Shown: positions 7,759 through 45,600 of the stretch, piece after piece
How the letters are laid out: every line of letters starts with the position of its first letter
Numbering within the stretch: the first letter of the stretch is position 1
IMG/VR virus record: IMGVR_UViG_3300017998_000010
Location: 1 to 64,000 of that record
DNA from: an uncultured virus (IMG/VR IMGVR_UViG_3300017998_000010)
Taxonomy: Duplodnaviria > Heunggongvirae > Uroviricota > Caudoviricetes
Reading direction: 5' to 3' (one strand)
DNA length: 64,000 bases
Position numbers and translations under genes: made by a program
Notes under the pieces: generated by a model
Told to the model about the DNA's origin: nothing
Seen by the model: the letters and a program-made list of their open reading frames with translations, nothing else
Database searches by the model: none

Positions 7759-7789
7759 CACATAGAATAACATATCGTGTTGATTTATC

Positions 7790-8156: not shown

Positions 8157-10205
8157 CCTACAAATCATCACCACTAGCACCAGTTCAGTTAAAACCAGAG
8201 ATAAAAGAAAGAATGGAAACCTTGAAAAAGGAACTTAGAGAATATTCAAAAAAGTACGATGAGGAACATAAGGATGTTAAATGCTGTTTCTGGGGATGTG
8301 GACTTTGGAGCGATTGTTCCACAAAATGTAATGGAACTGTGTATGATCATATAAAGACCTGTGGCTCTTGGTGGTATGGTTATATGTATGGCTGTGGTGA
8401 GAGGGATGGAACACTAGACGATAGGAGTTGAAGAAATGAACATAACAGGATGGGATTTTTCTAAAACCTTTATGGGTTTGTTTATAGAACATATAATCTT
8501 TTGGTTGTTAATGCCTAGTTGGTACAACAGCCAACTGTTTTCCACAGAAGTATTAACAAGAAGCCAATATTTGATAATGATACTTGGATTTGGACCAATA
8601 TTATTTGGCGGCTGGGCATTTTTCACTATATATATCGAAGTTCCATATTTTTTGATTAAAAAGAAAATTATGAAGGATCGTTATTTGAGTAAGATGGAGT
8701 TAAAAACATGAACAAAACGGATATTATTTTCTGGGGAAATATGCTTGTAATAGATTTCACGTTCTTTCTTACATTATTTTCACCAACTCTCAAGACGAAT
8801 GATACATTTATGAGTTTCTGTCTTATTTTGTTCGTTCCGTTGGTTTTTATTAGTACAGTAAAGTTCTTGTATAAGCCAATGGCAAGGGATATTGGTGAGA
8901 AATATAAAGTAAGACAAATTTTAAAATCTAACCTGTCAAATGATGAGAAGATAAAACTTATGGAGTTGGAGATGAAAAAGGATGGATGAATGTAAGCTAC
9001 TGAGAGGTTTACCAGCCAACAAACAAGGTTGGCGTTGGGTTTGGGGTCAAAAAGGTGGTAATATTCAAGGTGGAAACTGGTACTGCAAGGACTACAGTGT
9101 GCAATGTGAGATATGCAGAGAATGTGAAGTATGTAGAGAATCAAAACTAATAAAGAGAATTAGTGATCAATATGCGGCAGGAGAGGCAATGAATAAACTC
9201 TATGAAAGGGCTATAACTGCTGAAGATAAACTAAAGGAAATAGAGAATCTAATTTATAACCACAAACACCAATATGACCATATTGCACCAAAACATAGAA
9301 TACATGATATCGGTAAAACAGAGTATATCATCGACAAAGTTGAATTTATTGCAAGGGGTTGGTGAAAAAGGATGAAACTTGAGTATGAAGTTCTGTTGAA
9401 AATTAACACATACAAAGAGACAGGTCTTACGTTCCATGAGTTATGTGACATATTTTCCAAAAACACCAAACTAGAAGTTGCAAAGGCAGTTGGTGAGATG
9501 GAAATGATTGGTGCTACCAGAGGATTCTGGATAATGAATAAAGACAGAAGATGGGAAAGACGATATTTTGTAACGGGTGAGGGAACACCAGATTTTATCA
9601 AGACTCTGCTAGAGAATAAAGAATTTAGAGAATCAGTAATAGGCAAATCAGATACATATCAAGCCGATTTAGATGGTCTTTTCCACTTTGATGATGAGGA
9701 TCAAACGTTCTGTCAGTGTCCAGAGCTACGAGACTTGTACAAAAACCTCTTAGAAATACGTAAGGCATACGAGAAGAAACGACATGCAGAGGGTGTTGTT
9801 GCTGAAGATATGGCAATTAAAAAGTTACATGAGGTTATCTATGCCTATCCATTAAAGGAAACACATGTGATGGAAACAGAACCAAAGTTCATCGTTATGG
9901 GTGTTGGAAATGTACCCGACACAGACACGAACACAATCTACTATAAAAAGGATGGTGTTGTACAACCAGAGGTAACACTTAGGGAAGTATTAACATCATA
10001 TCATAATCATAAGAAACGGGTGAAGAAAGTTTGTTAAGAAACCTATTAGGTATAAAAAAGAAATTCACGGAAGAGGAACTTGAAAATAAGAGCCTTGTCA
10101 CACTCCTACGTGAAGGCATGGAAGATGCTGGATATGATGTCACAATCAATGTGTGTGGTAAGAAAGTTTATCCAAAACCATTAAAAGAACAGGTGAGTAA
10201 ATAAA

Positions 10206-16302: not shown

Positions 16303-17160
16303 TTAATATCCATTTTCTCTGTGGTTTAGGTAGAGTACACCGATTATAGCCCCAGCACCCAATACTAGAGAGGCATATACTAAGGTTAAGTCTGCATTTT
16401 CACCCGTAGCCCCTGTAGCACCTGTGTCACCCTTTGCTCCTATTGAACCTGTTGTGCCTGTGTCACCTTTTGGTCCTTGTAAACCCGTAGCACCCGTTTC
16501 ACCAATAGGACCAGTTTTACCTATTGTTCCTGTAGTTCCTGTAACACCTATTGGTCCAACAGGTCCAGTTGTACCAGTAGCACCTTTGGCTCCGGTGGCT
16601 CCTGTTGCACCTCTAGCACCTGTAGCACCAGTTCTACCTATTAATCCTCTAATGTTTGCTGTGAAAACCCATGAACCAGATATTTTCTCATAAACAGTTG
16701 AATTTCCTGTATAGAGGCAGAAATCACCATTTACACCTGTTGAATTTACATTTGGTATTGTAGCACTACTATACCATGTTGATCCATTTGTACCGTTAGA
16801 ACCTGTAACACCTTTTAGAATAGGCACGGTGAAGTTTGCTGAAGTTGTATCAGAAGTGAGGGCAGTATCTACAGCAGTAATTGTAAAGTTCCCACCCATT
16901 TGATCTAGAGCAGTGACCATGCATACAAAACCACCCAGAGAGTCAGAGGTGATGTTATATGGAATTGTAACCATCTGTGTTGTGTTCCAATATATTTTGA
17001 TAGTCTGGTTGGCTTGGAATCCAGAACCCATAATTGTTGTTGTCACACCTGTAGATGGATTCAACATGATCGTAGGTGATGGTGTAGCTGAAGCTAAACC
17101 CAGAGACATTACGCCTAGTATAAGTATAATAAACATTCCTAAACTTAGTTTGTTAAACAT
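16303..17160 (-). CDS. Exported collagen-like protein with Ig-like N-domain and C-terminal membrane anchor
   Basis: Signal peptide, beta-rich domain (GSGF...IYWN), about 28 contiguous G-X-Y triplets, C-terminal TM; own promoter at 17192-17209 (-). Confidence 0.85.
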
Positions 17161-17261: not shown

Positions 17262-18071
<810 letters not shown>

Positions 18072-18285
18072 GTTTTCTACCGTATATGAAAATACCGAAC
18101 TTATATAAAAGTGTTTCGGTTTATAGGTTATATCATACAATAGGAGTAGAAAGTGGAAGCGTAGATGGAGTAGAAACCCCAGAATTATATTATATTTATA
18201 TAAGATAACTACTAATATCGGAAGGTTTTTATATCACTGTAATATATCCTACATTAGATGATATAACTGGGAAGAGTGTGTGGGA

Positions 18286-19618: not shown

Positions 19619-20986
19619 ATGATTGAACTAAAGGTTAATCAAACAATTCGTAGTTTGTTTGCTGGTTTAGATGAAAGAGAAATATATGATGAGTTAGAAA
19701 AAGATATTCAGAAACGTGGCATTTTGGTTAAAGGTGTTGTTGCTAATTCACCTGAAGAGTATAAGGGTACGATTGTATGTGGTGATAAACGTCATACACT
19801 TGCCACAAAGCTAGGAAAGGAATTTCCTTATATTTTGGAGGAATTCAAGGATTTTGAGGAAATAATGGAATATGCTAAGAACGATAATCTTCTAAGACGG
19901 CAACTCACGCCAGCACAAAAATTAAAAGTCGAATCAAATTATATTGAATGGTTACGAAAGACACGCCAAGAACATGTAGATATAAGAGGTGTATCAAGTG
20001 ATACACCAATTGGAAATACAAGAGAACTTTTAGCAGAAAAAGTTGGTATGAGTCCAGCCACAGCACAGAGAGCATTGTATGTTATTGAAAATGCTACAGA
20101 CGAAGTTAAAAAAGATATGTATAGTGGTGAAACATCAATTTCTGGTGCTTATAAAAAAGTGAAGAAAACAAAGGAGAAAGGAGAGAAAGATAAGAAAGAC
20201 AACCTTATAAAAAAATTCAACTTTGATAGTGGTGTTGAGTGGTGTGATTATGGCATCAATATCTATGAGGGCTGTTTCCACAATTGCACATACTGTTATG
20301 CAAAACTAATGAATGATCGTTTCAAGTGGGTAGAAGTGTGGAATGAACCTAAAAAGCGAAATCTAGATTTGGTTGCTTTGGAAAAGGCTCTAGAGGGTAT
20401 TCCACCCGGAGTTTTCTTCTTTTGTTCCACATGTGATGCATATCAACCTTTAAACAAGACGTTGAAATGGGCTAGAGAAGTCTTACAAGTTATGCTCAAA
20501 TCTAAACACCACATATTAATTCTCACAAAATCGTCTGATGTTGAAGATGATTTTGATCTCATATCTCAGTATAAAAATGTTGAAGTTGGCTTCACTATAA
20601 CCTCTCTGGATGATATAACATATAAGAAATATGAACCAAATTCTAGTTTACCATCGGAGAAGGTTAGGGTGTTGAAAAAAGCCAAGGAAATGGGAATAAA
20701 GACACTCGTTTCAATTGAGCCTTGGATCATAGGACATACAGACCCACTTGAAATCATAAAACAACTACATCCTTTTGTTGACCGTTGGATAGTTGGTGTC
20801 GCAAACTATATGGGATTCCAACTCGAATCTTACAGAGTGTATGTACCAACACTCATAACATATCTCATTGAAAATAACATAAACTATAGGTTCAAGGCTG
20901 AGTTAGACCGTGTGGTAAAATCATACCCAATATTAAGTAGAGAAAGTTACGAAAAATCTCTGTCTCAGCAGGTGGGAGATCAGTAG
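19619..20986 (+). CDS. ParB-like N-terminal/HTH domain fused to SPL-like radical SAM domain
   Basis: IVCGDKRH and DNLLRRQLT (ParB-N); LAEKVGMSPATAQRA (HTH); GCFHNCTYCYA (CxxxCxxC); STCDAYQP, ILTKS, SIEPWI; promoter accgaaatgcttataaat at 19578. Confidence 0.85.
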   Translation: MIELKVNQTIRSLFAGLDEREIYDELEKDIQKRGILVKGVVANSPEEYKGTIVCGDKRHTLATKLGKEFPYILEEFKDFEEIMEYAKNDNLLRRQLTPAQKLKVESNYIEWLRKTRQEHVDIRGVSSDTPIGNTRELLAEKVGMSPATAQRALYVIENATDEVKKDMYSGETSISGAYKKVKKTKEKGEKDKKDNLIKKFNFDSGVEWCDYGINIYEGCFHNCTYCYAKLMNDRFKWVEVWNEPKKRNLDLVALEKALEGIPPGVFFFCSTCDAYQPLNKTLKWAREVLQVMLKSKHHILILTKSSDVEDDFDLISQYKNVEVGFTITSLDDITYKKYEPNSSLPSEKVRVLKKAKEMGIKTLVSIEPWIIGHTDPLEIIKQLHPFVDRWIVGVANYMGFQLESYRVYVPTLITYLIENNINYRFKAELDRVVKSYPILSRESYEKSLSQQVGDQ

Positions 20987-24348: not shown

Positions 24349-24550
24349 AATCCATTTTTTATATTAATTACCACAAACTTTATAGGTAACTGCATATATT
24401 TTATATATGATCAACATGTCTGATGATATTATCAAAAGTGCTATTGAAGGCATCGTGATTGCTGTAAGTGTAATGGTTGTTATTTTTACTATTGTAGCTC
24501 TGGTTGTAGCTTACTTACTTATTTTTCATTAACCTCATCGTGGTTTTTAT

Positions 24551-24568
24551 ATCATAACATTTAAATAC
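24551..24568 (+). promoter_or_regulatory. BRE-TATA promoter (class B, TAACA type) heading the basic-protein operon
   Basis: atcataacatttaaatac. Confidence 0.7.
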
Positions 24569-24638
24569 TACTGAACACAATACTATATTGATTAAATTGG
24601 GAAAGCGTTATGTAATTTACGTGAGGGTGAAAAAGTAA

Positions 24639-24830
24639 ATGCAAGATCATCCATTAACAGCCACATATAGACGTAAATTCTACAGATATGATTCCACTTT
24701 CAGAAAAAAACAAAACTCAGCACTTAGGGTAATAGAAATTATGGAATCTGGAAAATATCAAGCTATCGTTGCTGAACGCAAGACTGATGATGGTAAGTCT
24801 GTATTTGATGTATATAGGAGGAAAAAGTAA
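24639..24830 (+). CDS. Small basic protein, repeated-domain family member
   Basis: YRRKFYRY...A...G.YQAIV...VFDVYRRKK. Confidence 0.7.
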   Translation: MQDHPLTATYRRKFYRYDSTFRKKQNSALRVIEIMESGKYQAIVAERKTDDGKSVFDVYRRKK

Positions 24831-24832
24831 AA

Positions 24833-24997
24833 ATGCCAAAAGGTATGTTAGCAACACAACCAACAACTTTAAATAAGTTGTTTGTGCCAAAACAATCACC
24901 TGTTTTACAGGTAACTACCATAAAAAACAAACCCATACCAATTCCCAAAATAAAATCAGTAAAAAAGAAGGTTAAAAAAACAAGGAGAAAGAAGTAA
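24833..24997 (+). CDS. 54-aa basic protein with Lys/Arg tail (not in ORF track)
   Basis: MPKGML...KSVKKKVKKTRRKK; abuts both neighbours. Confidence 0.6.
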   Translation: MPKGMLATQPTTLNKLFVPKQSPVLQVTTIKNKPIPIPKIKSVKKKVKKTRRKK

Positions 24998-24999
24998 TA

Positions 25000-25086
25000 A
25001 TGAAAAATAGAGGAATGTCACGGAAGGGTGACAAAAGTAGGGCAAAGAAAGCTAGAAGAAGAAAAAAGCAGAGGATGTCTAAGTAA
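25000..25086 (+). CDS. 28-aa ultra-basic peptide (not in ORF track)
   Basis: MKNRGMSRKGDKSRAKKARRRKKQRMSK; fits exactly between two operon genes. Confidence 0.55.
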   Translation: MKNRGMSRKGDKSRAKKARRRKKQRMSK

Positions 25087-25087
25087 A

Positions 25088-25462
25088 ATGGTATTTATAT
25101 ATCAAACTGGTGGGAAGATTCCCAAAGAAGTAACCCATAACGGGTTAATTTACAGGCATGAATGGAACGCAAAGTCCATGTCAGATGCAAAGAGAATAGG
25201 TAAAGATCGCAAACTTTTCAAAGAGTCTATGATTTACATTAAGAAGATTCCATATGCTAGAGAAACAGTATATGCTATCTACATTCATCACTCAACTACA
25301 GATCGTATCCTCAAGGGTACACGATTTGAGATGGCTGGTTCAGCACCCCTAAAAACGCAAGCTGTCAAGATGGGTAAGGACATTTATGGAAGGGGTAACT
25401 ACAAGCTGATAAAACATCCACACGGATATGGTGTTTGGAGAAGGAAGAGAGGAAAAGACTAA
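25088..25462 (+). CDS. Basic protein with two copies of the repeated domain
   Basis: HNGLIYRH...A...VYAIYIH and LKGTRFEM...A...GYGVWRRKR; start moved to ATG 25088. Confidence 0.7.
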   Translation: MVFIYQTGGKIPKEVTHNGLIYRHEWNAKSMSDAKRIGKDRKLFKESMIYIKKIPYARETVYAIYIHHSTTDRILKGTRFEMAGSAPLKTQAVKMGKDIYGRGNYKLIKHPHGYGVWRRKRGKD

Positions 25463-25464
25463 AA

Positions 25465-25668
25465 ATGGTAACAAAGTATATTCGTAGAAAAGGTATTTCT
25501 ATAGATGCTGATTATAGATACTATCTAGGAAGTGAAGGTTTGTATGGTATTCTGTTTGGACATCGTTTGAAACCAGCACAGGCTCGGAAAGCTAACTATA
25601 TTTGGAAAACACTACTTGCACAAGAAGGTAAAAAGTCATACATTTCCAAAAACAGAAGAAAAAAGTAG
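25465..25668 (+). CDS. Small basic protein
   Basis: MVTKYIRRKG...KNRRKK. Confidence 0.6.
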   Translation: MVTKYIRRKGISIDADYRYYLGSEGLYGILFGHRLKPAQARKANYIWKTLLAQEGKKSYISKNRRKK

Positions 25669-25686
25669 GGTGAGGAAAAGACAAAA

Positions 25687-26199
25687 ATGGTAACAAAAAG
25701 AAGTCCACCACTTAGACACATTGTAAGCGGTTATAAGACAAAGAGTGGGAAAAAGATAAGCCCACACACCAGAGGTAGCTTTGGTATACGTATGGGTAGC
25801 TATAAAAAAATGGAGAAAAACCCACTATACTTAGACTCTAAAAAGACAAAGCGTATTGGTGGAAGTAAACCAATGCCCGGAGATGTAGTTAAGCCAATCA
25901 ATTCTCAGGATATGCTTGTTAGATCAACTTCATATGGCGTTATAGAGGGAGCAATTGGTAAAAGTAAATCAGAGTACATGGTAACATTCAACCCATCTCC
26001 TGCACCTTGGTGGGACAGGGGGTTTGTTCAATCTTCAGGTGGACCCGCCTTCTATATAAAAGCCTCAAGAATGAAACCAGCAGGATGGAAGAATCAGACT
26101 TTCCAATATTTCCCACATGGTTTCATGGGTGCTGGTCTTGCTAAAACAAAGACTGTGAAGGTAAAGGTTTGGAAAGTAAACTTAAGGGAAAAAAAGTAA
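25687..26199 (+). CDS. Basic protein with N-terminal H-x-V-x2-Y-K-x3-G-x6-RGS motif
   Basis: SPPLRHIVSGYKTKSGKKISPHTRGS; motif shared with the 36849 ORF. Confidence 0.65.
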   Translation: MVTKRSPPLRHIVSGYKTKSGKKISPHTRGSFGIRMGSYKKMEKNPLYLDSKKTKRIGGSKPMPGDVVKPINSQDMLVRSTSYGVIEGAIGKSKSEYMVTFNPSPAPWWDRGFVQSSGGPAFYIKASRMKPAGWKNQTFQYFPHGFMGAGLAKTKTVKVKVWKVNLREKK

Positions 26200-26200
26200 A

Positions 26201-26380
26201 ATGAAACTAGAGTCTAAATTTCCATATAAGGATTTTAATGGAAAGCCTTATAAGTTCCATGAAGCATATCCTACAAGGAAACTTGCAGAGAAAAGCGTAA
26301 AACATTTGCATGATTATGGAGATTTAGCACGTATTGTGGTTGAAGATCATAAATACGTAGTTTATTGGAGAGAAAAGTAA
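26201..26380 (+). CDS. 59-aa repeated-domain family member (not in ORF track)
   Basis: KDFNGKPYKF...TRKLAEKSVKHL...G.LARIV...YVVYWREK. Confidence 0.75.
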   Translation: MKLESKFPYKDFNGKPYKFHEAYPTRKLAEKSVKHLHDYGDLARIVVEDHKYVVYWREK

Positions 26381-26381
26381 A

Positions 26382-26501
26382 ATGGCAGAGATATTCAAAG
26401 CATTTGGAGATTCTGCTAAAAAAGGGTTTAGGATGGCATTTCCTAAGAAGAAAAAAACCAGAAAACGAAAGAGTAAGAAAAAAGTGGTAAAAAGTAAATG
26501 A
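26382..26501 (+). CDS. 39-aa Lys-rich peptide (not in ORF track)
   Basis: MAEIFKAFGDSAKKGFRMAFPKKKKTRKRKSKKKVVKSK; ATGA overlap with 26498. Confidence 0.6.
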   Translation: MAEIFKAFGDSAKKGFRMAFPKKKKTRKRKSKKKVVKSK

Positions 26502-26770
26502 CACACACAATTATTGCACGCGGTATGAAACTCGAAATTCCAGAATATATTATCTACAGAGGTAAACGTTATGAGGTTATGTCATCTCATAGCACATACA
26601 GACCACATGCTCTAGAATGGGCAGAGTCTGATAGAAAACGTGGGCACAAAACCATAGTAAAAACCTTCCCAACAAAGGAGAAGGGAATCAAGGTTTATGT
26701 ATTGTACAGGCACAGACCAACCAAGGTATATAACCAGAAAACTGGAAAAGCAGAATGGGAAAAGAGGTGA
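26498..26770 (+). CDS. Repeated-domain family member
   Basis: YRGKRYEV...HALEWAESDRKRGHKTIVK...VYVLYRHR. Confidence 0.7.
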   Translation: MTHTIIARGMKLEIPEYIIYRGKRYEVMSSHSTYRPHALEWAESDRKRGHKTIVKTFPTKEKGIKVYVLYRHRPTKVYNQKTGKAEWEKR

Positions 26771-26774
26771 AAAA

Positions 26775-26972
26775 ATGTCATATAAATTAGCGTATGTTTG
26801 GGAAACCAAAAAAGAAGCCGATGAACATGCAAAGAGTCTAAGAAAAACCAAGCATGGTGTTATGAAACATAAGACCTATGTTGGTATAAAGGTAAAGCGT
26901 ACCAAGAAAGGGTATGGTGTTTACTACAAGGAAACCAAAAACTACAATAAGTGGCTGAGGACGGGAAAATAA
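26775..26972 (+). CDS. Repeated-domain family member
   Basis: MSYKL...TKKEADEHAKSLR...VKRTKKGYGVYYK; GAGGTGA SD before ATG 26775. Confidence 0.7.
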   Translation: MSYKLAYVWETKKEADEHAKSLRKTKHGVMKHKTYVGIKVKRTKKGYGVYYKETKNYNKWLRTGK

Positions 26973-27160
26973 ATGATAGAAAAAATAAGAAAAATAGGTA
27001 AAAAGAATATTTTTTTTAATGGTAAAATGATAAAACGAACAGTTTATCAAGACCCTTATAATGGTAATATATGGATTGAATCTAAAGATGGTGGAATACA
27101 TTATGTTAAATGGGTTGGGGATTGTTATGAACCAACAGGACATGGTAGGGGTAAGAGGTA

Positions 27161-27400
27161 ATGTCCGAAACCAAATTAAATAAAAAGCTAGAAAAGGCAC
27201 AGCAATCTTCTGGTAAGAAGGGTGGTCGGGGAACGCACGGTTCAATTACCAAGGCGGGGAAAGTCAGAGATCAAACACCGAAAATAGCCAAGTCCAACCT
27301 CAAGAAACACTCTGGTCCGTTGAAGAAAAACAGGGAAAAGTATTTCAGGTTCACACACAAGCCGAAAGATACAAATACTAGAACAGAATATAAAATGTGA
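27161..27400 (+). CDS. rps30e: Ribosomal protein eS30 (S30e) homologue with basic N-terminal extension
   Basis: THGSITKAGKVRDQTPKI...P.KKNREKY matches the S30e signature HGSLxKAGKVRxQTPK...PR..NR..Y. Confidence 0.9.
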   Translation: MSETKLNKKLEKAQQSSGKKGGRGTHGSITKAGKVRDQTPKIAKSNLKKHSGPLKKNREKYFRFTHKPKDTNTRTEYKM

Positions 27401-28012
27401 TTGAAGATGCCTGAGTATTCTTTTTATAAGAATCACAAACTTGTAAAGGTAACATATGAAAATCTAGGCACTGCCCTCACATTAAAAAAGTTCAAAGACA
27501 TACCCAAGCATACACGTGTTGAAGCAAGGTATAATATCATAAAAGGTAGAAAACCATTCATCACAATACAGGTTGGTTATGGTACTGGTTGGTCAAGGGT
27601 CGATGGTCGTTGGCTTAACCTGATTGACAAAAATATGGATGGTTGGGAATTTCTCAGCCGAAAAACAAAAGGCTTATAAGCAACACAGATAGCTGTGTAT
27701 TTTGAGAGATATTGGTGGATCGTAAAATAAAATTTAAACCAAGTCTGCATGATGTTCATGCCTGTGAGTCATTAATGGATGCTCTTGGTGAAGTCGATGT
27801 GAATGTTGGTCAATTCTGGTATCAACCAGTCATTGAGATGCTTTCATATTTTAAACTTCCAGACAAACGCTGTTCTGAGTGTCACAAAAAAATGCCATTT
27901 ATGGATTATTATATCAAACAGGGCATGTGTGACGAGTGTGCAAGTAAATTCAGTTCCGATGAGAACTAGAAAAGTTTATAAGTAACCTGACATATACTTT
28001 ATTGGATAATGT

Positions 28013-28183
28013 ATGGGCAGAACTGGTCGAAAGTATGTTAAGGGAAAGGGAAGCAAACCTATCCAGTGTAAATATTGCATAGATGTCTTACAGGGAGAAA
28101 CCAGATATGGAAGACATATAGTAGCAAAGCATCCAGAGCATATTGAAGATTATATACAAGGAAGGGCACACTATGGTAAGTAA
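28013..28183 (+). CDS. C2H2 Zn-finger protein (not in ORF track)
   Basis: CKYC...YGRHIVAKHPEHIEDY; promoter actagaaaagtttataag at 27965. Confidence 0.75.
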   Translation: MGRTGRKYVKGKGSKPIQCKYCIDVLQGETRYGRHIVAKHPEHIEDYIQGRAHYGK

Positions 28184-28481
28184 AAAGGTTATGGGTTATA
28201 GTCGTTGTGGAATACCATGCGGTGAATGTTATGACAACTATGACAAGAAGTTAAAGCATGGTTGTGAGAGATACCCGCAAAAGATTACCAATCCAGATGG
28301 TGTGGATGATGAATATAGAATCAAGCAACGAGAAAAGTACAGACCAAAGAAACAACTATCACCAAAAAAGGTCTGCCCAAAGTGTGGGGCAAACATGGTG
28401 TATAAATCTGTCAAAGGATACCGATACACAAACAACTATTTCAAGTGCCCCAAGTGTCGTTGGTTGGAAAGAGTAAAGTAA
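28173..28481 (+). CDS. Cys-rich Zn-ribbon protein
   Basis: CGIPCGEC; CPKCG...CPKC. Confidence 0.6.
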   Translation: MVSKKVMGYSRCGIPCGECYDNYDKKLKHGCERYPQKITNPDGVDDEYRIKQREKYRPKKQLSPKKVCPKCGANMVYKSVKGYRYTNNYFKCPKCRWLERVK

Positions 28482-28500
28482 GTCAGTGGTGTGTTTTAAA

Positions 28501-28647
28501 ATGATATGGACAAAGGATAAAGAAGCCGATGTTTTGAGGCTACATGATGAAGGTTTCTCTGCGGCTGAGATTGCCAAGAAGCTGGACATACAAATTTATG
28601 AGGTGGATTTAAAGCTAGACGATTTTCATAAACTACATTCAAAATAA
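28501..28647 (+). CDS. 48-aa HTH protein (GcrA N-terminal-like; not in ORF track)
   Basis: MIWTKDKEADVLRLHDEGFSAAEIAKKL. Confidence 0.65.
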   Translation: MIWTKDKEADVLRLHDEGFSAAEIAKKLDIQIYEVDLKLDDFHKLHSK

Positions 28648-28742: not shown

Positions 28743-29231
28743 CTAAATTCGGATGCCCCGTCGGTTTATCCGAAATAGTTTTTGTGTTTTATCTTTTTCC
28801 TTTGGATCAAACACCACAATAACCGATGGAAATGGTGCTGGTGATTCACAATTTCCAAATGTCAGTCTACCCTCAACAAACCCAAGGCTTGTACATCTCA
28901 GACAATATTCTTGAAAATATTTTGTATCTGTTCTAGCAGGAATTAACAGGATAACAGTTGCATTATAAAGAGTATATTCATAATAACACTTACTTACCCA
29001 ACTCGATATATCTCCATAAGGTGGATTTACGAATACTATTTCATCTTTCCAATTCTGAATTAGACCATCATCTTCGATTGTGTAGAATTTTGGGCATTTT
29101 GCGTTCTCTTTTATGGCACATGGGTCTAGGGTAAAATGGTATTCTTTGTTCAGTCCATCATAGAAATCTTGGGGGGTTTCCCAGTTATCGGACTTCTTTG
29201 AGAACATTACATCTAAGGTATTCTTGTTCAT
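28743..29231 (-). CDS. Phage-type DNA N6-adenine methyltransferase (Dam family)
   Basis: DNWETPQ, FTLDPCA, VFVNPPY, LIPARTDT, GRLTF, APFPS. Confidence 0.92.
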   Translation of the reverse strand: MNKNTLDVMFSKKSDNWETPQDFYDGLNKEYHFTLDPCAIKENAKCPKFYTIEDDGLIQNWKDEIVFVNPPYGDISSWVSKCYYEYTLYNATVILLIPARTDTKYFQEYCLRCTSLGFVEGRLTFGNCESPAPFPSVIVVFDPKEKDKTQKLFRINRRGIRI

Positions 29232-29351: not shown

Positions 29352-30320
29352 TTAAAAGTTGTGGCTGAAGTGTTGCCAATTAACTAAATCTTTAAGATCA
29401 ATAGGTCTGAGTTCCACCGACATTTTGGGTACTTGTAATACAATGGCGTATTTGGTCATAAGATCAGGTAGTTTTTCTGGATTATCACAACCCCCAACCT
29501 CAATTATCAGTATTTCATTACCTCTTGTAGCATAGATGTCTGGTGAGTATCTGTGTCCGTTTATTATAACAAATCTCTCACCTGTGGTAGACCAGCTTTG
29601 TACTTTCCAACCAAGCCTTTCAAGTTGGCTACTAATGAGGGCTATGGTGACTGTGTGTGGTGTATTTCCACCTTTGTTGTGGTCGGTTCGTAATTGTTGG
29701 GATTTACTCATTTTTATTATTGACTCTGGTGTGTGATGTTTACCGAACATGGGGGAGGTATTTCCTTTCATTGGAGAGGGTCTGCCTTTATTTTTTTCAC
29801 TTATTTTTTTTACAGTATTTGGTAATCTATGTTTACCATATTGGGGATGGTTCTCACCAGATGTAATGTCACTTAAATATTTTATAGTCTCTGGTGTGTG
29901 TTTCTTGCCATAAAATGGATTTTTCTCACCAGAAAATCTACCTTTCATATCCTTACTGTGTTGTATACACCACTCTGGTGTGCGTTTTTTACCCCACATA
30001 GGGTTATTCTTACCACTATGTTTGCCCCTTCCTCCTTCACTTTGTTTTTTTCTTGTAGCTTCTGATGGGTGTTTACCATAGTTAGGATTTAACGTCCCTT
30101 TTTTATCAAACATATGGTTTTTTTCACCTTTTTGTGCGTCACCTATTTTTTTCTTATGCTCTGGTGTTTGCGACTTACCATACACAGGGCTTAATATCCC
30201 AGACCTACCATACATTGGGTTTTTCTCACCAGATGCAACACCTCTACGTTTACGTGTTTCACTCATTTTTAATTTCTGCTCATCAGACATCTTCTCTCCT
30301 TTCTTCATAATTTCAATCAC
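29352..30320 (-). CDS. NUMOD3-repeat protein with C-terminal PD-(D/E)XK-like nuclease domain (homing-endonuclease-like)
   Basis: Repeated GEKNPMYGKxHT/SxE units; YSPDIYA...IIEVG. Confidence 0.8.
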   Translation of the reverse strand: MIEIMKKGEKMSDEQKLKMSETRKRRGVASGEKNPMYGRSGILSPVYGKSQTPEHKKKIGDAQKGEKNHMFDKKGTLNPNYGKHPSEATRKKQSEGGRGKHSGKNNPMWGKKRTPEWCIQHSKDMKGRFSGEKNPFYGKKHTPETIKYLSDITSGENHPQYGKHRLPNTVKKISEKNKGRPSPMKGNTSPMFGKHHTPESIIKMSKSQQLRTDHNKGGNTPHTVTIALISSQLERLGWKVQSWSTTGERFVIINGHRYSPDIYATRGNEILIIEVGGCDNPEKLPDLMTKYAIVLQVPKMSVELRPIDLKDLVNWQHFSHNF

Positions 30321-37423: not shown

Positions 37424-40400
37424 ATGTCAGAAGAATATCAACAATCAGAGCAACAAGCACAAGCATTACGTACACAAGAATTGAATAGATCACAAGCATT
37501 AATTCAACAAAATGTTATAGAACAAACTAGAATACAACCAAAACCAGTAATAGTATCGACACCAATACAAGCCCAAAAAGCAACTATCGTACCATCAAAT
37601 TATGTTGATGCAATAAATAGGGTAAATGTACACAACACATCAATAACATCAATAAAACCAGTAATATCTTCAACACCAGTAAAAGTAATACCACCAGTAT
37701 CATCAATAATGGCAAAGATAGACAATTCACAGAATATGATTGAACAAAGTAGATTAAAACTAACATCAAATCCTTTAGCACTTGCTATAGGAGATAGCCC
37801 ACAAGCCGCCCCAACAGAATTTGGTAGAAGTGATCCAAAAATTAGGGCTGGATTAGAAACAACTCTTCTTAAAGTTAATACGGCTGAGTATGATAAAAAT
37901 GTAGCATCATATACAACTTTTATTAAAGATGGAAATGATGCACTAGCACAATATAATGATATAGTAAAACTACATAAATGGGATGAATATGATTTTTCTT
38001 CATATAAATCTACCAAAAATGGAACGGGTAAACAAGCATATATTAAAGATATGAATGATTTAAAAATGGCACTTTCAACAGCACCAACAGACTTAGATAC
38101 ATATAAGAAAAACTTTGATACTTATACCAAGTCGAAAACACAACTTATATCATCACTTCAAACAGCATCTATAGCAAAGACTTCTTGGACACTTAATTAC
38201 ACGGATAATGGGGTTAAAAAAACACAAATATTTAATAATTATGATGATATGCAAAAGTTTATAGTAGATATTAATACAAAAGCCGCAAGCACATTGATTT
38301 TAAGTCCAGCAGAGGGTTCTACTATACAGAAGTTTGATACAAGTGCAAAGAGTTCTACAGCAAATAAAATAGACGCAACAGAGATGCAATTTAAGACACC
38401 TGATGAATTACATAGATATATTGAAGGTTTATCTGAGACACAAATTAAAGCGAATGTAGATGTTCTCAGCAATAAATTATGGCAACTTGCATCACAAGCA
38501 CCTGAGTATGCACAATCAAATGATTTAAAAGTTGCGTTGGATATGCTTTATCCGGCATTTTCGGCAATAAAAGGTCAAAATGGTGAGTACAATCCCAAGG
38601 GAGTTTTACAGGCAGAGGCTATAATTGCAGAAGCTACAGAAAAACAACTGTCACCATTCTTAAATTTACTACCAAGAAAGGCAGATGGATCAAACTATTT
38701 ATTCCAAGTTCTTCCTGAACAGGAAACCTTTACATATAAAGATTTAGAGGATAGAGGGCTTACACCAGACAAGGTAATTGTTGGCAAGGCAATGGGATAT
38801 GCTACAGAGGGTGCAGAAATATACTTCACATCTATGGTTGAAGGTGCTGTTCTTGGTTTTGCTTATGGTGCGGCAGGTAAACTTGTAGCTAAAATTCCCG
38901 CAATTGGTGGTTTGGCTGAAAGGGGTGGTATGGCATTAACAACAGCAACAGGGGCAAGTTTACCATCAAGTATTCTTTCTACAATAAAAGCAGGTTTAAC
39001 AAAACTAGGTATTATTGATGAGGCTACACAATTAGTGACTGATGAAGAGGGAAAAGTTATACCTCTTACGGTTGAAAGTATTACAACTAAAGCACCAACA
39101 CTTACAGGTCAACTTAAAAATGCTATAACAATTGGTATGGACAAACTATCACTTGGTGTTACTGAGATGGATACATTAAATCAATTAGCGGCAATTACAC
39201 AAATGCCACTGGTTACTATAGCAGGAACGGCTGGTCTTGCCGCATATGAATATGATAGACTTGAAAAAGTGCTACAGACAAAAGGGGCAGAAGATTGGTT
39301 GGGTCAATTTGCTGTAGATTCTTCTGCTTTCCTTGGTGGTATAAAAGGTTTCCAAGTAGGATTCTCATATAGTGATACACCTTTTAACTATATTCAAATG
39401 AAGCTAACAAAAGGACAACCACTAAGTGCATATGAAGTTGCAGAGGCAAATGTTATAGAGGGCAGGGCTAAGTATCCGGGCTTTGAAGAACAACGAATGA
39501 AAGCAACACCAGAAAACTTCAAGATGCTAAGTGTGAACTATACACCACCTGAACTGGAACAGGAGGGGAAAGTTATTGTATATTCAGGAACCCAAGACCC
39601 ACAATTAGTTGCAAGTCTAGCAAAAGTCGGTGTTACAGGTGGAGATGCACCATTACTTTGGGCATCACATAGTTGGAGTACTGCATTTTCTGGTATAGGA
39701 CAAGCAGAAGAGGTAGCTTTGCCAAGTGCTTTTGTCAACCCATTTGCTAAGGCAAGCGTAATCTCAATTGGAATTGATGATGTTACCAATGAAGATTTTA
39801 TAAGTAAGATGGATCGTAAAGACTTAGGAAAACTTTATCAGGATATACTGGATAGATCAGGACAGTATGTCGGTGTTATGCCCTCAGAACAGGGGATGGA
39901 ATCACAAATAATCATTGGACCGGGGCAGAAATTCATAAAAGTTGGTGATCAGTTGTGGGTCAATATAAACGGTAGAATTGTCCCACTACAGATGATGCAA
40001 CCAATTGGTAATGCAGGTACTGTTACAGAAGATGCAATTAGCAAAATTGTGAATCTTGATTCGGGTTCTTCTAGTATTAAGGCAAACACAATGTATATAC
40101 CAACACTCAATGCTGTTTTATCAACCGATTATAGCATCTCAGCAACCACAGGCTCTATAAAATTATCAACGTCACAAATAAATGATTTATCTACTATTAT
40201 TTCAAGTGGGAAACTATCAGCCACACAGTTAGATTCTGCGATTAATGCTTTATCTGCACCTACAATAGAGAAACTTGTTGATATTTCTAGTCCAGAGCAA
40301 GTTTCTAAGATATATAATTCTGTACCAGAGTCTGTGAAGAGTAATCTATCTGAAAGAATTAGTTCAAAAATAGCATCTTCTATTAAATCTGTGCAATCAG

Positions 40401-40906
40401 AAGATAGTATAAGTTCTATAGAATCTGCATCAGAAAAGGTAAGTTCAAATCAGGTAGAGAAATATATAAGTTCAGTAGAATCAGCAAAATCACCATCAGA
40501 TATAAGCTCAATATCTGAGGTAAGTAATATTTCTGAGCAAAGTAAAATTTCATCTGTGTCAGAAACATCAGAACCAAGTGAACTTTCATCTATATCTGAA
40601 TTATCAGAACCAAGTGAACCCTCACCATCATCTCAGTCATATGAAGAAAAAGAATATCCATCTTTGAAACTTCCCGCACCAGCAAAGCCAACAGATAAAG
40701 ACTATGCGGATAAGCCATCAAAAAGCATATCAAAGTTTAAAGTGACATATACATTCATGGATAACGAAAATGAAAAAGAAGTTTCTGCACGTACATTTAG
40801 AGAAGCACTCGGAAATACATGGAACAAGAGAGGATCATTAGAGATACCAAAACAGGTTAGTATAGTAAAAATGCCAAATGTGAAGAGTACGAATGTATTA
40901 TTTTAG
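37424..40906 (+). CDS. 1160-aa putative virion protein
   Basis: No signal peptide; central G/A-rich hydrophobic helices; Ser/Glu-rich low-complexity C-terminal tract. Confidence 0.6.
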   Translation: MSEEYQQSEQQAQALRTQELNRSQALIQQNVIEQTRIQPKPVIVSTPIQAQKATIVPSNYVDAINRVNVHNTSITSIKPVISSTPVKVIPPVSSIMAKIDNSQNMIEQSRLKLTSNPLALAIGDSPQAAPTEFGRSDPKIRAGLETTLLKVNTAEYDKNVASYTTFIKDGNDALAQYNDIVKLHKWDEYDFSSYKSTKNGTGKQAYIKDMNDLKMALSTAPTDLDTYKKNFDTYTKSKTQLISSLQTASIAKTSWTLNYTDNGVKKTQIFNNYDDMQKFIVDINTKAASTLILSPAEGSTIQKFDTSAKSSTANKIDATEMQFKTPDELHRYIEGLSETQIKANVDVLSNKLWQLASQAPEYAQSNDLKVALDMLYPAFSAIKGQNGEYNPKGVLQAEAIIAEATEKQLSPFLNLLPRKADGSNYLFQVLPEQETFTYKDLEDRGLTPDKVIVGKAMGYATEGAEIYFTSMVEGAVLGFAYGAAGKLVAKIPAIGGLAERGGMALTTATGASLPSSILSTIKAGLTKLGIIDEATQLVTDEEGKVIPLTVESITTKAPTLTGQLKNAITIGMDKLSLGVTEMDTLNQLAAITQMPLVTIAGTAGLAAYEYDRLEKVLQTKGAEDWLGQFAVDSSAFLGGIKGFQVGFSYSDTPFNYIQMKLTKGQPLSAYEVAEANVIEGRAKYPGFEEQRMKATPENFKMLSVNYTPPELEQEGKVIVYSGTQDPQLVASLAKVGVTGGDAPLLWASHSWSTAFSGIGQAEEVALPSAFVNPFAKASVISIGIDDVTNEDFISKMDRKDLGKLYQDILDRSGQYVGVMPSEQGMESQIIIGPGQKFIKVGDQLWVNINGRIVPLQMMQPIGNAGTVTEDAISKIVNLDSGSSSIKANTMYIPTLNAVLSTDYSISATTGSIKLSTSQINDLSTIISSGKLSATQLDSAINALSAPTIEKLVDISSPEQVSKIYNSVPESVKSNLSERISSKIASSIKSVQSEDSISSIESASEKVSSNQVEKYISSVESAKSPSDISSISEVSNISEQSKISSVSETSEPSELSSISELSEPSEPSPSSQSYEEKEYPSLKLPAPAKPTDKDYADKPSKSISKFKVTYTFMDNENEKEVSARTFREALGNTWNKRGSLEIPKQVSIVKMPNVKSTNVLF

Positions 40907-41530: not shown

Positions 41531-42385
41531 TTGATTGAAATGGAATGGTTACTTTCTGATGTTGATGAAATGCCACAACAACATCTCTCAGAAGCAACAA
41601 AAATAAAAATAAGTAAGACCAAGAAAAGTATGGGTAGGACAGGTGAGAAAGCACCTAATTATGGTAAACATCTCACACCAGAAACCAAAGTGAAAATTGG
41701 TAGTGCCAATTCAGGTAAACATTACTCTAAAGAGACAAATATGAAAAAAGGTCATAAAGGTGAAAGTAACCCTATGTTTGGTAGGATAGGTGAAAAATGC
41801 CCTGCGTTTGGTAGAACTGGTGATAAAAATCCAATGTTTGGCAAACACCACTCGGAAGCAACAAGAATAAAAATCGGAAACGCACAAAAAGGCAAGATAG
41901 GTGTGTTATGTCCTAATTATGGTAAACATCCATCAGAGGCAACAAAAATAAAATTAAGTGTGGCAAATAAGGGTAGACCTTCTCCTATGAAGGGAAAACA
42001 CCAATCAGAGGCATCAAGAGAAAAAATGAGAGAAAAAGCACCATTAAAAGAAAAACATAATAGAGGTGGAAAAACATCTCATTTGGTTACGATATCACTC
42101 ATTAGTAATCAATTGGAGAGATTAGGGTGGGCAGTACAGAGTTGGACTACAACGGGAGAGAGATTTGTTAGAATAGATAAATATAATTATGTACCCGACA
42201 TCTATGCCAAGAAGGGTAATGATATCATTCTAGTTGAGGTTGGGGATTGTTCTACACAGAAACTATGCAATCTTATGATCAAATATCCAATAGTGTTGCA
42301 AGTCCCAAAAATGAAAATGGAACTAAAACCTATTGATATTAGAGACTTAGTTAATTGGCATAAATTTTATCGTTGGATGGTGTGA
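41531..42385 (+). CDS. NUMOD3-repeat plus PD-(D/E)XK-like nuclease (paralogue of 29352)
   Basis: NPMFGKHHSE repeats; YVPDIYA...LVEVG. Confidence 0.8.
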   Translation: MIEMEWLLSDVDEMPQQHLSEATKIKISKTKKSMGRTGEKAPNYGKHLTPETKVKIGSANSGKHYSKETNMKKGHKGESNPMFGRIGEKCPAFGRTGDKNPMFGKHHSEATRIKIGNAQKGKIGVLCPNYGKHPSEATKIKLSVANKGRPSPMKGKHQSEASREKMREKAPLKEKHNRGGKTSHLVTISLISNQLERLGWAVQSWTTTGERFVRIDKYNYVPDIYAKKGNDIILVEVGDCSTQKLCNLMIKYPIVLQVPKMKMELKPIDIRDLVNWHKFYRWMV

Positions 42386-42632: not shown

Positions 42633-45600
42633 GTGGTAGATAATATGAAGTTTAAATCTTTAGTTGTGTTACTCATTTTCATTATGAGTGCATTTATTAT
42701 GCCACAACAGATTGCACACTCTACCCCATCAATCACAACAACATCACCAACGGCTTTTGGATATAACTTCCAAAGACACACTTTTAATGCTTCAGGTCTG
42801 ACTTGGTACTTCTATTCAGATGGCATAGACATGAAATGGACATCCACACCAGACTATATCACATTTAACACAATTTATACTGCTGTGACAGGTGTTGCTT
42901 CTGGTAATCTATTTTCTGTGTTTTCTAATGGTCCGTATGTTGCTTATGTACGTGTGACCACCGCAGGTGTATTATACTATCGTTATGGAATAACACAAAC
43001 GAATGGTAGTATTGTTTGGTTAATCTCTGAGACAAAAATAAAAACAAATAATTACTATGTAACAGCACCATCAGTTTGCATAGATACTGCTGGATATTTA
43101 TGGATTGGTTATTGTAACTCAAACGGTGTTATAGGTGGAAATGCTACATATACAGCCGCATATGTTATGAGAAGTGACCGTGACAATGGCACAGTTGGAT
43201 ACCCTATGCCAATAGAACTTGAGAGATCACTTGCTTTTGTACAATATGGTGTTTGCCCAACACCAACAGTTGATGGTCATGTCATCGTTGCTTATGGGAG
43301 CGATTCTACACCACTAAAAACTAAGTCTTTTAACTCTGCATATGGTTTAGATGGAGAACCACTTGGTTCAATTCTTGAACAGGGTATAAAGACACTTTCA
43401 AGTATTGTTTTTGATAGTGGATATAGTTCTCAGTCAGAAAATTGTTTGATCCAGTTGAATAGCATAAGTACCTTTACAGCATCAGCCACCATGTATTCTA
43501 CTGGTAGTGGACCTGTTTATGGAACATTTATAATTTATTATTCTGATGGTACAACTCTCACAATACAAGTGCCACTTAATGGTGATGTTTTAGGTGCTAT
43601 TTACAAATATAATGCGGAACATGGTATTTCAAATGCAAAAGTGATAACCAAGATCACTTATAATGATGCTACCATGTGGGAAAACTTTAGTTCAGACTTA
43701 GAATATTATGTTGATGGTATAGCATCACATGATAGATATGGTGGGGATGATTACTATGGTGGTGTTGGCACACTAAATTATATAAAAACTCTACCTGCAA
43801 TATTTGTTTGGCACTCGTATGTTAATAGCTGGTATTATACCACAGACCCAATAACAGGAAGAGATATTATATATTACAATTTTACATCACCGCTAAGTTC
43901 AACAGAACTAAATAATATTGGTATTACATATCAAACAGACCCATCTCATACATTACAACTCAACTGTACGGTTGTATATGGTGATCACACATCAACCAAA
44001 ACTATTATAAATGTTGCTAAAGATAAGCAATTAACATCACCAGTATCCTTTGTTGGTGGGAAGTCTGTCACAAGTTTTGTGGTAAGTACAAGTTCTTATG
44101 GTTTTCTTGATTCTGGTTATGAAATTCAGAATGTCTTATTTAATTCTACCAACACGGAAAATTCACTTAATAATGCAGTTAGTGATGGAACGTACCTTTA
44201 TGAATCACTATATCAAAGTCCATTAGTCATTAAAAAACTAACCGTAGATGGTCTTTTCCCCGTTGATGTTTGGCAATATAATTCAACACTTCCCGCAAAT
44301 AATACACTGGTATATGATGCTGGTTTCTTATATATTGGCTGTGAAGGATACGGAAACTTAGTAATAACTAAAGTAAATGCGGTAACAATGAAAACAGCAC
44401 AATCATACAAAGCAGACCCAAGTTATAATCTTGATTATGCTCTTGGCTTGTGTTCAGATGGCACATATTTGTATGCATTAGCAAGAAATATGGCAACTAA
44501 TCATCTTGTTGTAGTGAAAATTCTCGAATCTACTATGACATATGATTCCAAGGATGTGACAAGCTATATTTATGTAGGTACAAACACGATTATGTATGAT
44601 GCCGCAGATGGTAATGTCTATATAAGTATGTCACAAGCATCAAATTGTGCGGCTATACAGATGAATACTACAACATTATCCACCACAGGCACATGGAGTG
44701 GTGCAGGTTATGGTGCGAATGTTTATAGTAGTTCGGCATATGGTAGTTTCATATACATTGGTGTAGATTCAAAGATCGTAAAGATAAATATAACACCATT
44801 TATGTTAACCGTAGCTAATTGGTCTGTTCTTCCTAGTTATCATGCAAATCCAACATCCATAGTAAATGATGGTACATATCTATATACTGTATATAATTAT
44901 ACAACACCAGTATTGACAAAAATAGACATAAATACTATGAGTACAATATCATATCTACTTCCATCAGTGGGTGGTAAGAGTGCCAAACTTATCTTTACAA
45001 CAGGTATATTTGATGTTTGTTTTGATAGTGATAGTAGTGCAACTTCAATTAGCAATTATATGTTGTGTTTAAGAACATCTGTATTTAATACTGTTTCTCA
45101 AACCTCATATTCTCTGAAATCATTCTCATCATTCAGTTGTGTCAATAAAGATAATGATGTTTTTATTGCTTATACAACATCGACAAACAAAATAGATTCA
45201 GATTTTTATAGTGGTGAAATGGGGGCTATCACAGCAGAAACAATTCTATATACTTCCTTGGGTACAGCACCATCACCAACAATCTCAAGAAATAGCTATG
45301 AGGATATCTCTGTTATTTGGATGAATGATCCAGTAACGGACAAAATATATTACAATATATATAGAAATTCAACATCTTCATGGAGTGGTGTTACAGTAGG
45401 TATTACTAGTTCTGGTATAACAACAGGAACACCGATAATATCTGTTTATCAATCTTTCTCACCAACAGGTGTAGGTTGGATGACAGGTGCTGGACCACCA
45501 TACACAATTGTAGTAAATGGTCTTTTGACAGGTGATGAACCAACACTAAATTATCTGGTAGTACCAGACTTGAGTGCTGGAATTTCAACGTTCAGGAATA

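Follow-up and report, generated by a model that had tools for sequence, protein, structure and literature searches.

The internal proteins IPI–III of phage T4 and the adenovirus proteins VII and mu are thought to travel with the viral genome or to coat it. Here, we analyzed a stretch of 64,000 nucleotides from an uncultured virus (IMG/VR record IMGVR_UViG_3300017998_000010, positions 1 to 64,000; Caudoviricetes), hereafter called the window, with a focus on an operon at 24639–27679 on the plus strand. Like the T4 and adenovirus sets, the operon groups together genes for a number of small, highly basic products that contain Lys/Arg tracts. It shares no sequence or fold kinship with these proteins; unlike them, 5 of its 13 products are predicted to be folded copies of one domain.

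This repeated domain, referred to here as the mini-domain, shows a remote likeness to SPOR domains (PF05036), such as those of CwlC (1x60) and RlpA (6i0n). SPOR domains are bacterial and periplasmic and are carried by exported or membrane-anchored proteins that bind denuded peptidoglycan, whereas the mini-domain family is virus- or metagenome-borne, its members are strongly basic, and those encoded in the window are predicted to be soluble proteins devoid of export signals.

A further gene of the operon is related to ribosomal protein eS30. The excerpted text of PMC11698992 places eS30 at the mRNA entry channel, limits its occurrence among archaea to the TACK and Asgard groups, and describes a contact of the N-terminal Pro2 of S. 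solfataricus eS30 with h44 beside the A site. L21e is given in the excerpt of PMC10541130 as the only ribosomal protein detected in archaeal viruses before a bL19 homolog, and Mizuno et al., in the excerpt of PMC6375957, list a viral eS30 only for a murine retrovirus. A literature search on viral, archaeal, and metagenomic S30e returned no report of eS30 in an archaeal virus.

Five operon genes carry six copies of one small domain

An initial annotation, made from the DNA letters alone, had described a nearly gap-free run of about 13 tiny Lys/Arg-rich proteins built around a repeated domain. The run itself is borne out: 13 same-strand open reading frames (ORFs) of 28–170 codons lie end to end between 24639 and 27679, separated by -4 to +18 nucleotides (nt) from stop to next start. 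All 13 products have an isoelectric point (pI) of 9.4–12.0 and a combined Lys and Arg content of 20–54%, with a median pI of 8.4 for the 120 greedily called ORFs of the window.

The expectation that the repeats would align significantly does not hold within the window alone. Among domain-bearing ORFs the best composition-corrected BLAST E-value is 0.39, pairwise comparison of 17 small ORFs yields nothing significant (best E 0.19, for a pair without a domain copy), and leave-one-out hidden Markov models (HMMs) from the window copies rank the respective copies 24, 6, 11, 3, and 61 of 984 ORFs (E 2–40). It does hold once outside relatives are added. A profile of the six window copies (A1), searched against 1.84 billion representative proteins at E ≤ 1e-3, retrieved 42 proteins, three of them identical to window proteins and 39 others. 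One outsider, P0016, is 58% identical to ORF 26201; the others are diverse and mostly 53–83 residues long. Their common consensus reads FNGKxYxL...sK..A...AK.LR..G.lARVv...Y.VY.R.

An HMM built exclusively from 34 non-window proteins was run on the 984 window ORFs and recovered ORF 26201 (26201–26380; E 4.9e-17), ORF 26498 (26498–26770; 2.6e-10), ORF 24639 (24639–24830; 2.7e-10), ORF 25088 (25088–25462; 8.9e-9, with its two domains at 1.2e-3 and 6.2e-5), and ORF 26775 (26775–26972; 2.1e-6), the next window ORF following at E 0.53. Reversed ORFs score 0.25 at best, and the best of 1000 shuffles of the five members reaches 0.047. The outsiders were themselves recruited by the window profile, so that this test is partly dependent; every one of them had passed E ≤ 1e-3 against 1.84e9 sequences. 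A mere compositional likeness of Lys/Arg/Tyr-rich ORFs would be in keeping with the lack of any significant match within the window alone. However, equally basic operon ORFs lacking the domain do not score with the external-only HMM, and composition is therefore not the cause of the matches; the E-values of 5e-17 to 2e-6, the clean controls, and the confident fold prediction described below likewise leave this explanation next to no probability.

As judged from these profiles, five window genes carry six copies of a true domain of ~50 residues, in keeping with the expanded family of one small domain that had been suggested. The positions at which the initial annotation had placed it, in ORFs 24639, 25088 (twice), 26201, 26498, and 26775, are upheld by the external-only HMM, whereas ORF 41143, in which it had seen a partial copy, is unlisted at E ≤ 20 and was discarded as a member. 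ORF 26973 was rejected as well (E 4.6), and a similarity between ORFs 27401 and 41143 dropped from E 0.002 to 0.52 upon composition correction.

The six window copies are 17–29% identical with ORF 26201 as reference, and on this measure the paralogs are old and divergent. ORF 26201 encodes a 59-residue protein with the cleanest single SPOR-like mini-domain. ORF 24639 (63 residues, basic, identical to P0010) combines one copy with an RRKK tail, and ORF 25088 (124 residues) holds two copies in tandem, both stretches being kept in its 72%-identical ortholog P0009. One copy precedes a C-terminal extension in ORF 26498 (90 residues, identical to P0011), and the single copy of ORF 26775 (65 residues) is without the predicted N-terminal hairpin; the latter protein has an 82%-identical ortholog, P0032.

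Outside members of the family are basic without exception (36 of 36; median pI 10.4, minimum 9.7). When 38 profile hits were examined (all but P0009 of those considered), three, P0046 among them, showed a membrane-anchor-like N-terminal segment. On the sequences retrieved, the family is rare, confined to metagenomes, and mostly made up of stand-alone proteins of ~60 residues. The only multidomain architecture seen is that of P0023 (768 residues), where a membrane segment and two mini-domain copies are joined to a C-terminal ferritin/rubrerythrin-like domain.

The initial annotation had recognized no described family, and the window copies are indeed filed in none of Pfam, PHROGs, or NCBIfam. 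None of the five domain-bearing window ORFs matched Pfam at E ≤ 0.01, NCBIfam returned nothing for the domain, and PHROGs matched a single one (E 0.0087) of the 39 family members in an extended alignment (A3). Searching 50,697 phage records by tblastn with family member P0017 gave no match, a word-based search with ORF 26201 retrieved only itself, and the ESM Atlas held no usable match for ORF 25088. Ten family clusters that were looked up bear no functional name (one member carries just a gene-call string), and single-protein scans with P0034 and P0022 led to no viral locus. Literature searches on small basic proteins of archaeal viruses returned nothing relevant, and those combining the SPOR domain with archaeal viruses unrelated papers only.

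The predicted fold points to a remote SPOR relative

Structure prediction and fold comparison had been proposed along with the initial annotation. An AlphaFold2 (AF2) model of ORF 26201 computed from the 39 sequences of A3 reaches a predicted local distance difference test score (pLDDT) of 88.2, with strands at residues 9–12 and 15–23, a helix at 26–39, and strands at 41–48 and 51–58; a beta-beta-alpha-beta-beta fold is thus predicted with confidence. Foldseek ranks the CwlC SPOR domain of B. subtilis first (1x60; probability 0.99, TM 0.62, E 0.35), superimposed with a root mean square deviation (rmsd) of 1.4 over 41 columns. VIA-align places designed EHEE mini-proteins first (Z 5.8 and 5.3), ahead of a LAGLIDADG DNA-binding half-domain of I-Tsp061I (Z 5.2), CwlC (Z 4.6), and the SPOR domain of RlpA (Z 4.4).

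At the sequence level, the Pfam SPOR profile matches 7 of the 39 A3 members at E ≤ 1 (best 1e-4, below threshold). P0019, the one member checked by itself, attains 17.4 bits against the gathering threshold of 21 bits, a threshold that no window copy reaches, and comparison of the family profile with CwlC gives E 0.058. The A1 profile moreover retrieved a bona fide two-SPOR protein, P0046 (E 6.6e-4; PF05036 at 1.4e-35). A strand-helix-strand-strand unit is common to SPOR domains and the mini-domain, and in both the helix motif K..A...A..lR..G is followed by a hydrophobic strand; RlpA SPOR superimposes on the ORF 26201 model with an rmsd of 1.9 over 45 residues. The SPOR fold is ribonucleoprotein (RNP)-like, beta-alpha-beta-beta-alpha-beta, with four strands and two helices, whereas the mini-domain model contains one helix and an extra N-terminal hairpin (FNGKxY). 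The evidence for a SPOR link is weak but comes from several directions, and we read the mini-domain as a remote, trimmed relative of SPOR rather than as a member of that family.

The I-Tsp061I match (2dch) raises a second comparison. LAGLIDADG half-domains, including those of I-DmoI and WhiA, are built on a beta-beta-alpha-beta-beta core whose four strands form an antiparallel sheet, as in the mini-domain model, and in the LAGLIDADG enzymes this sheet rests on DNA. However, the superposition extends over 58 residues at an rmsd of 3.5 A, designed mini-proteins score no worse, and the mini-domain has neither the LAGLIDADG helix nor the catalytic residues. The resemblance is, as far as the model can tell, one of shape only.

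If the kinship to SPOR extended to function, the mini-domains would bind a cell-envelope glycan, such as pseudomurein or products of the element's own glycosylation cluster, during entry or release. The remote sequence and fold signals are consistent with such a role, as are the membrane anchors in 3 of the 38 profile hits, which recall bacterial SPOR proteins, and a glycosylation cluster of the window that includes an STT3-type transferase. Conversely, signal peptides and membrane segments are absent from all 13 operon proteins, the window copies stay below the SPOR gathering score, and one helix is predicted instead of two. Further, we know of no peptidoglycan or pseudomurein in archaea that possess eS30. 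Collectively, a true SPOR function appears highly improbable.

Organization of the operon

Gene calls were assessed by tiling, translation signals, and codon usage. The annotated frame has the highest codon-usage score of the three same-strand frames in all 13 ORFs, and the highest of all six frames in 11, the exceptions being ORFs 24833 and 25000. Shine–Dalgarno (SD)-like matches of at least 5 nt, located 3–13 nt 5' of the start, are present in 5 of the 13 ORFs compared with 5.7% of random positions, and matches of at least 4 nt at 9 of the 13 starts compared with 22%; this background is window-wide, and the purine-rich local sequence inflates the enrichment somewhat. The majority of gene junctions read ...AAAAGTAAA(A)ATG, and the SD and A-rich spacer of each gene sit within the terminal Arg/Lys/Glu codons of the preceding one. 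As a consequence of this overlap, the Lys/Arg tails are partly shared with translation signals. The operon genes look translationally coupled, and exact tiling, SD-like sites, and codon frames together support the 13 gene calls. Hydrophobic segments are absent from all 13 products (maximum Kyte-Doolittle value 0.58 over 17 residues), which are therefore predicted to be soluble and to lack export signals.

Apart from the domain-bearing genes, ORF 25687, and the eS30 homolog, the run comprises six ORFs without detected relatives. ORF 24833 (24833–24997) encodes a 54-residue peptide with a pI of 12.0 and a Lys/Arg tail. Its coding status is moderate: it tiles exactly between its neighbors and has AGGAGG 11 nt upstream, and its frame is the best on its own strand, with one antisense frame slightly higher. 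The 28-residue product of ORF 25000 (25000–25086; 54% Lys plus Arg) is the least certain of the run, with a weak codon score of 0.041 versus 0.103 for an antisense frame. ORF 25465 (25465–25668) encodes a basic protein of 67 residues with an RRKK tail, and ORF 27401 (27401–27679) one of 92 residues that starts with TTG; for neither was a family detected in Pfam, PHROGs, or NCBIfam. ORF 26382 (26382–26501) encodes 39 residues with a Lys/Arg tail, its stop sharing 4 nt with the start of the following gene, and ORF 26973 (26973–27161) is a basic protein of 62 residues that contains an FNGK motif without belonging to the mini-domain family; the frames of both are the best of six. A Pfam scan of the 13 ORFs returned eS30 as the sole match, and PHROGs matched none of the 13.

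The initial proposal of a single promoter at 24551 is unsupported: sigma-70-type matches are not above expectation (15 versus 19.6 +/- 3.8 in shuffles). The 106-nt gap before the operon holds candidate archaeal TATA-like elements on the plus strand at 24544–24567 (TTTTTATATC and TTTAAATA, the latter octamer at 24560). Across the window, the density of TATA-like octamers is 7.9 per kb in intergenic regions compared with 1.07 per kb in coding regions. Intrinsic terminators in the window are not above shuffles.

Immediately 5' of the first gene lies a 16-codon mini-ORF on the plus strand (24588–24638; LIKLGKRYVIYVRVKK, then stop), which joins the GKRY hairpin motif to a YVRVKK end and terminates in the AAAAAGTAAATG junction of the real genes. 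Speculatively, it may be what is left of a domain copy after an internal deletion.

Six near-identical contigs, four from IMG/VR and two of metagenomic origin (162,755 and 193,754 bp), show 100% identity over the operon.

An ORF 25687-type gene anchors related arrays

ORF 25687 (25687–26199) encodes a 170-residue protein composed of a basic N-terminal arm and an all-beta C-terminal domain, and has seven homologs (E 3e-95 to 1e-22). The C-terminal domain carries the conserved motifs FNPSPxPWW, SSGGP, and YFPHG (YFP.G across homologs; alignment A2) and is modeled by AF2 at a pLDDT of ~90 for residues 61–140. By contrast, the arm (approximately residues 1–60) is disordered in the model and shared by the two closest relatives only. 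Fold matches are weak (PRC barrel Z 4.0, RimM 3.2 and 3.0, KOW 2.9), Foldseek found nothing, and the ESM Atlas gave only leads below 0.8. DUF4121 (PF13497) matches ORF 25687 at E 0.22 (11.1 bits) and its homolog at locus L020 at E 5.7e-5 (22.9 bits), neither reaching the gathering score of 27 bits; the two proteins match the same part of the profile (positions 99–146 and 73–152, respectively). We know of no function for DUF4121, and a full-text literature search on it returned no paper. A scan of genome contigs with the A2 profile produced one match, a spurious one of 33 residues on a bacterial metagenome-assembled genome contig with 70% GC.

Three of the loci recruited solely via ORF 25687 homologs contain related basic arrays of 10 to ~22 small ORFs. 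Locus L017 has ~20 consecutive plus-strand ORFs of 54–111 residues with a pI of 9.2–11.6, L018 a similar run, and L019 ten such ORFs. The mini-domain recurs in these loci: an HMM built solely from window copies detects it in L011 (1e-7), L018 (2e-6), and L017 (6e-5), and an HMM of A3, with scores down to 3e-11, places four L018 ORFs and two L017 ORFs at E ≤ 0.003. In L011, a mini-domain gene homologous to ORF 26201 lies directly downstream of the ORF 25687 homolog, as in the window. These comparisons show, at the level of gene content, an ORF 25687-type gene as the anchor of related arrays, in an arrangement kept in distant contigs. The ORFs of the L017 and L018 runs have a single, sub-threshold Pfam match (DUF6582); apart from a few weak unrelated matches, Pfam recognizes among 59 proteins of L017–L019 only an N6_N4 methylase ~1 kb before the run on the L017 contig and a weak ParB_N match that lies 1.7 kb past the L019 run.

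The L017 and L018 contigs (2428–8718 and 28–8249, respectively) consist of little other than ~20 or more consecutive small, basic ORFs, often Cys-rich and many starting with MVK or MAK. Some are duplicated within a contig, such as a 44-residue Cys-rich ORF of L018 with copies at 1370 and 3816.

At loci L014 and L020, the 25687-type domain resides inside larger acidic proteins of 345 and 1249 residues, the latter multidomain. This setting would suit early proteins for host takeover or anti-defense, in which basic charge is incidental or serves protein–protein inhibition, for instance by blocking nucleases or chromatin proteins in the manner of modules of the "polyvalent" proteins of phages and plasmids. 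The weak DUF4121 match and the methylase and ParB_N neighbors point in the same direction, and paralogs that are 17–29% identical to each other while ORF 26201 is 58% identical to P0016 would fit an arms race. However, the pI of at least 9.7 in all 36 outside members argues that the charge is functional, and known small anti-defense proteins are typically acidic DNA mimics. We consider an anti-defense or takeover role distinctly unlikely.

A divergent eS30 with a long basic head

ORF 27161 (27161–27400) encodes a 79-residue protein that matches the eS30 family PF04758 at E 2e-10 (41.1 bits, gathering cutoff 27), confirming the eS30 that had been reported among the domain copies. It scores 48 bits with the archaeal S30e equivalog model NF006817, short of the cutoff of 75, and eS30 chains from solved ribosomes can be aligned with its core (E 5e-7 at best). 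By sequence, ORF 27161 is a genuine but divergent eS30. The core HGS(I/L)xKAGKVRxQTPK of cellular eS30 (PF04758; 9fhl chain e, 52 residues) is present, preceded by a 24-residue basic N-terminal extension, MSETKLNKKLEKAQQSSGKKGGRG, before the conserved THGS. This extension ends in GGRGT and takes the place of the Met-Pro start that the excerpt of PMC11698992 describes for most archaeal eS30.

The long-headed form is common to ORF 27161, located on a viral contig, and 20 metagenomic relatives. The GGRGTHGS junction is intact in 15 of the 20 and differs at one or two residues in three more; head length varies, and the two most distant relatives have the shortest heads. In one of these relatives, P0067 (98 residues), a C-terminal CxxC...CxxC zinc-ribbon-like extension is fused to the core. 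As the extension sits at the point where Pro2 would meet h44 and the A site, the basic head appears well placed to affect decoding or factor binding.

Two further IMG/VR contigs of 76.8 and 136.4 kb encode eS30 of canonical length (MPTHGSLTKAGKVR...; L025 5995–6177 and L026 5995–6165). Both genes are of the MPTHGS... form and lie among ordinary genes outside any basic array, and neither contig contains a mini-domain family member. Since these two contigs carry them, eS30 genes seem to recur in putative archaeal viruses. Searching the L017–L019 arrays by phmmer with all window small proteins found only the ORF 25687 and 26201 families and no eS30. Basic arrays without eS30 and eS30 without a basic array make the two separable modules, and eS30 looks like an independent passenger of the operon.

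Proposed function of the operon proteins

The family-wide pI of at least 9.7 on a folded domain of 50 residues, with conserved aromatic and basic strand residues, suggests binding to a polyanion, in which the basic domains, predicted to be folded, could be joined by the Lys/Arg tails and by the basic arm of ORF 25687. This polyanion would most likely be the DNA of the element itself, which would be coated, compacted, or shielded by proteins acting either packaged with the DNA or right after entry, alongside the products of the adjacent DNA methylase and ParB-like genes. Separately, the long-headed eS30 would replace host eS30, or compete with it, where the small subunit has its mRNA entry channel and A site. 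Own DNA is favored as the target because arrays occur without eS30 and lie near methylase or ParB-type genes; such genes adjoin the operon in the window and are located 1–2 kb from the runs on L017 and L019. We put forward coating or protection of the element's own DNA as a tentative reading that has a real but limited claim.

Several observations weigh against it. ORFs 24833, 25000, and 26382 are without homologs, and in two of these three an antisense frame scores at least as high as their own. The predicted mini-fold is very common, and no VIA-align match reaches the level regarded as meaningful for this tool. SPOR domains bind the glycan strands of peptidoglycan, not nucleic acid. The neighborhood argument is drawn from three contigs, and no capsid, portal, or terminase match was obtained among the scanned ORFs of the 64-kb window. 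Moreover, an eS30 inside the operon and the ribosomal-protein-like size and charge of its products fit a ribosome-directed function equally well.

In such a ribosome- or RNA-directed set, the operon proteins would attach to host ribosomes or viral mRNAs and tilt translation in favor of the virus, with SPOR-like mini-domains as RNP-type RNA binders next to the ORF 25687 barrel, zinc ribbons, and the long eS30. Besides the eS30 homolog and the size and charge of the proteins, translational coupling as in ribosomal-protein operons speaks for it, as does the RNP-like fold of SPOR domains. The best fold matches of ORF 25687, weak as they are, are ribosome-linked small barrels, and downstream ORF 28143 weakly matches an archaeal "Zn-ribbon RNA-binding protein" (PRK14890, 18.6 bits) and an HVO_2753-like zinc finger (HVO_2753_ZBP, 19.4 bits). 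On the other hand, a ribosomal family is matched by only 1 of the 13 proteins in Pfam and NCBIfam, the L017–L019 arrays are devoid of eS30, the eS30 genes of L025 and L026 stand alone among ordinary genes without the domain family, and all of the fold matches stay at Z ≤ 4. A ribosome- or RNA-directed set is therefore doubtful in our view, and the specific form of it in which a suite of ribosome- or RNA-binding mini-proteins, including the long eS30, rebuilds the host small subunit during infection is unlikely. The operon as a ribosomal-protein operon proper was rejected, with 1 of the 13 products homologous to a known ribosomal protein. Between DNA coating or protection and ribosome remodeling, we favor the former.

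The element, its probable host, and neighboring genes

Protein 26201 has been found on 39 contigs of up to 213,709 bp, and the record nearest to the window, 59 kb long with a completeness of 33%, is assigned to the proviruses. The element is an uncultured large virus-like element represented by IMG/VR viral contigs and by metagenome contigs of 162–214 kb. No tRNA was found in the window, which has a weak integrase match. The eS30 gene, the SD-coupled polycistronic genes, and the intergenic TATA-like octamers fit an archaeon of the TACK/Asgard type, which is the most likely host.

Downstream of the operon, four more small plus-strand genes at 27712–28647 encode a Cys4 zinc-ribbon-like, a C2H2-like, a multi-CxxC, and a 53-residue protein; ORF 28486 matches DUF6115 at 24.2 bits. 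These genes probably share the transcription unit of the operon, which would end before a convergent Dam methylase gene (28743–29231). The operon is flanked in the window by this gene, an N6_N4 methylase gene, and ParB-like genes. On the upstream side, a plus-strand gene at 19619–20986 encodes a 455-residue protein in which a weak ParB N-terminal match is fused to a radical SAM/DUF5131 region, followed on the minus strand by a ParB-like gene (phrog_4715, E 8e-4) and by the N6_N4 DNA methylase gene just upstream of the operon.

Elsewhere, two adjacent minus-strand genes (16303–17160 and 17262–18140) encode collagen triple-helix repeat proteins (PF01391, E 2e-14 and 1e-29) and lie in a GC-rich patch of 43.6% compared with ~35% elsewhere. 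Multiple NUMOD3 motifs, a feature of homing endonucleases, are present in three genes at 29352–30320 (minus strand), 41531–42385 (plus strand), and 46987–47703 (minus strand). Two plus-strand ORFs at 37424–40906 and 42633–46895 encode acidic proteins of 1160 and 1420 residues (pI ~5) with no match in Pfam, PHROGs, NCBIfam, or, by phmmer, PDB sequences. The plus strand at 51335–64000 is occupied by a ~13-kb sugar/glycosylation cluster, an unusual cargo for a virus-like element. It comprises genes for a GHMP kinase, a SIS protein, a dual-specificity phosphatase, a transaldolase/FSA-like protein, GT2 glycosyltransferases, an NAD epimerase, a radical SAM protein, a hexapeptide transferase, several methyltransferases, and a 523-residue STT3-type oligosaccharyltransferase (PF02516, E 9e-11).

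Implications

The mini-domain appears to define a real protein family outside Pfam, PHROGs, and NCBIfam, consisting of basic, soluble, single-helix relatives of the SPOR fold that have so far been met in metagenomes only. Its setting is unusual, with six domain copies in one operon and a recurrence of the domain in much longer arrays on distant contigs. The eS30 of the window would join the few ribosomal proteins described in archaeal viruses, L21e and bL19 in the excerpt of PMC10541130, and its extension is expected to sit where, according to the excerpted part of PMC11698992, archaeal eS30 touches the decoding site. Should the operon and the related arrays encode a ribosome- and RNA-binding suite after all, the SPOR superfamily would gain in the SPOR-like mini-domain its first branch that binds nucleic acid, and the array would be the viral equivalent of a ribosomal-protein operon.

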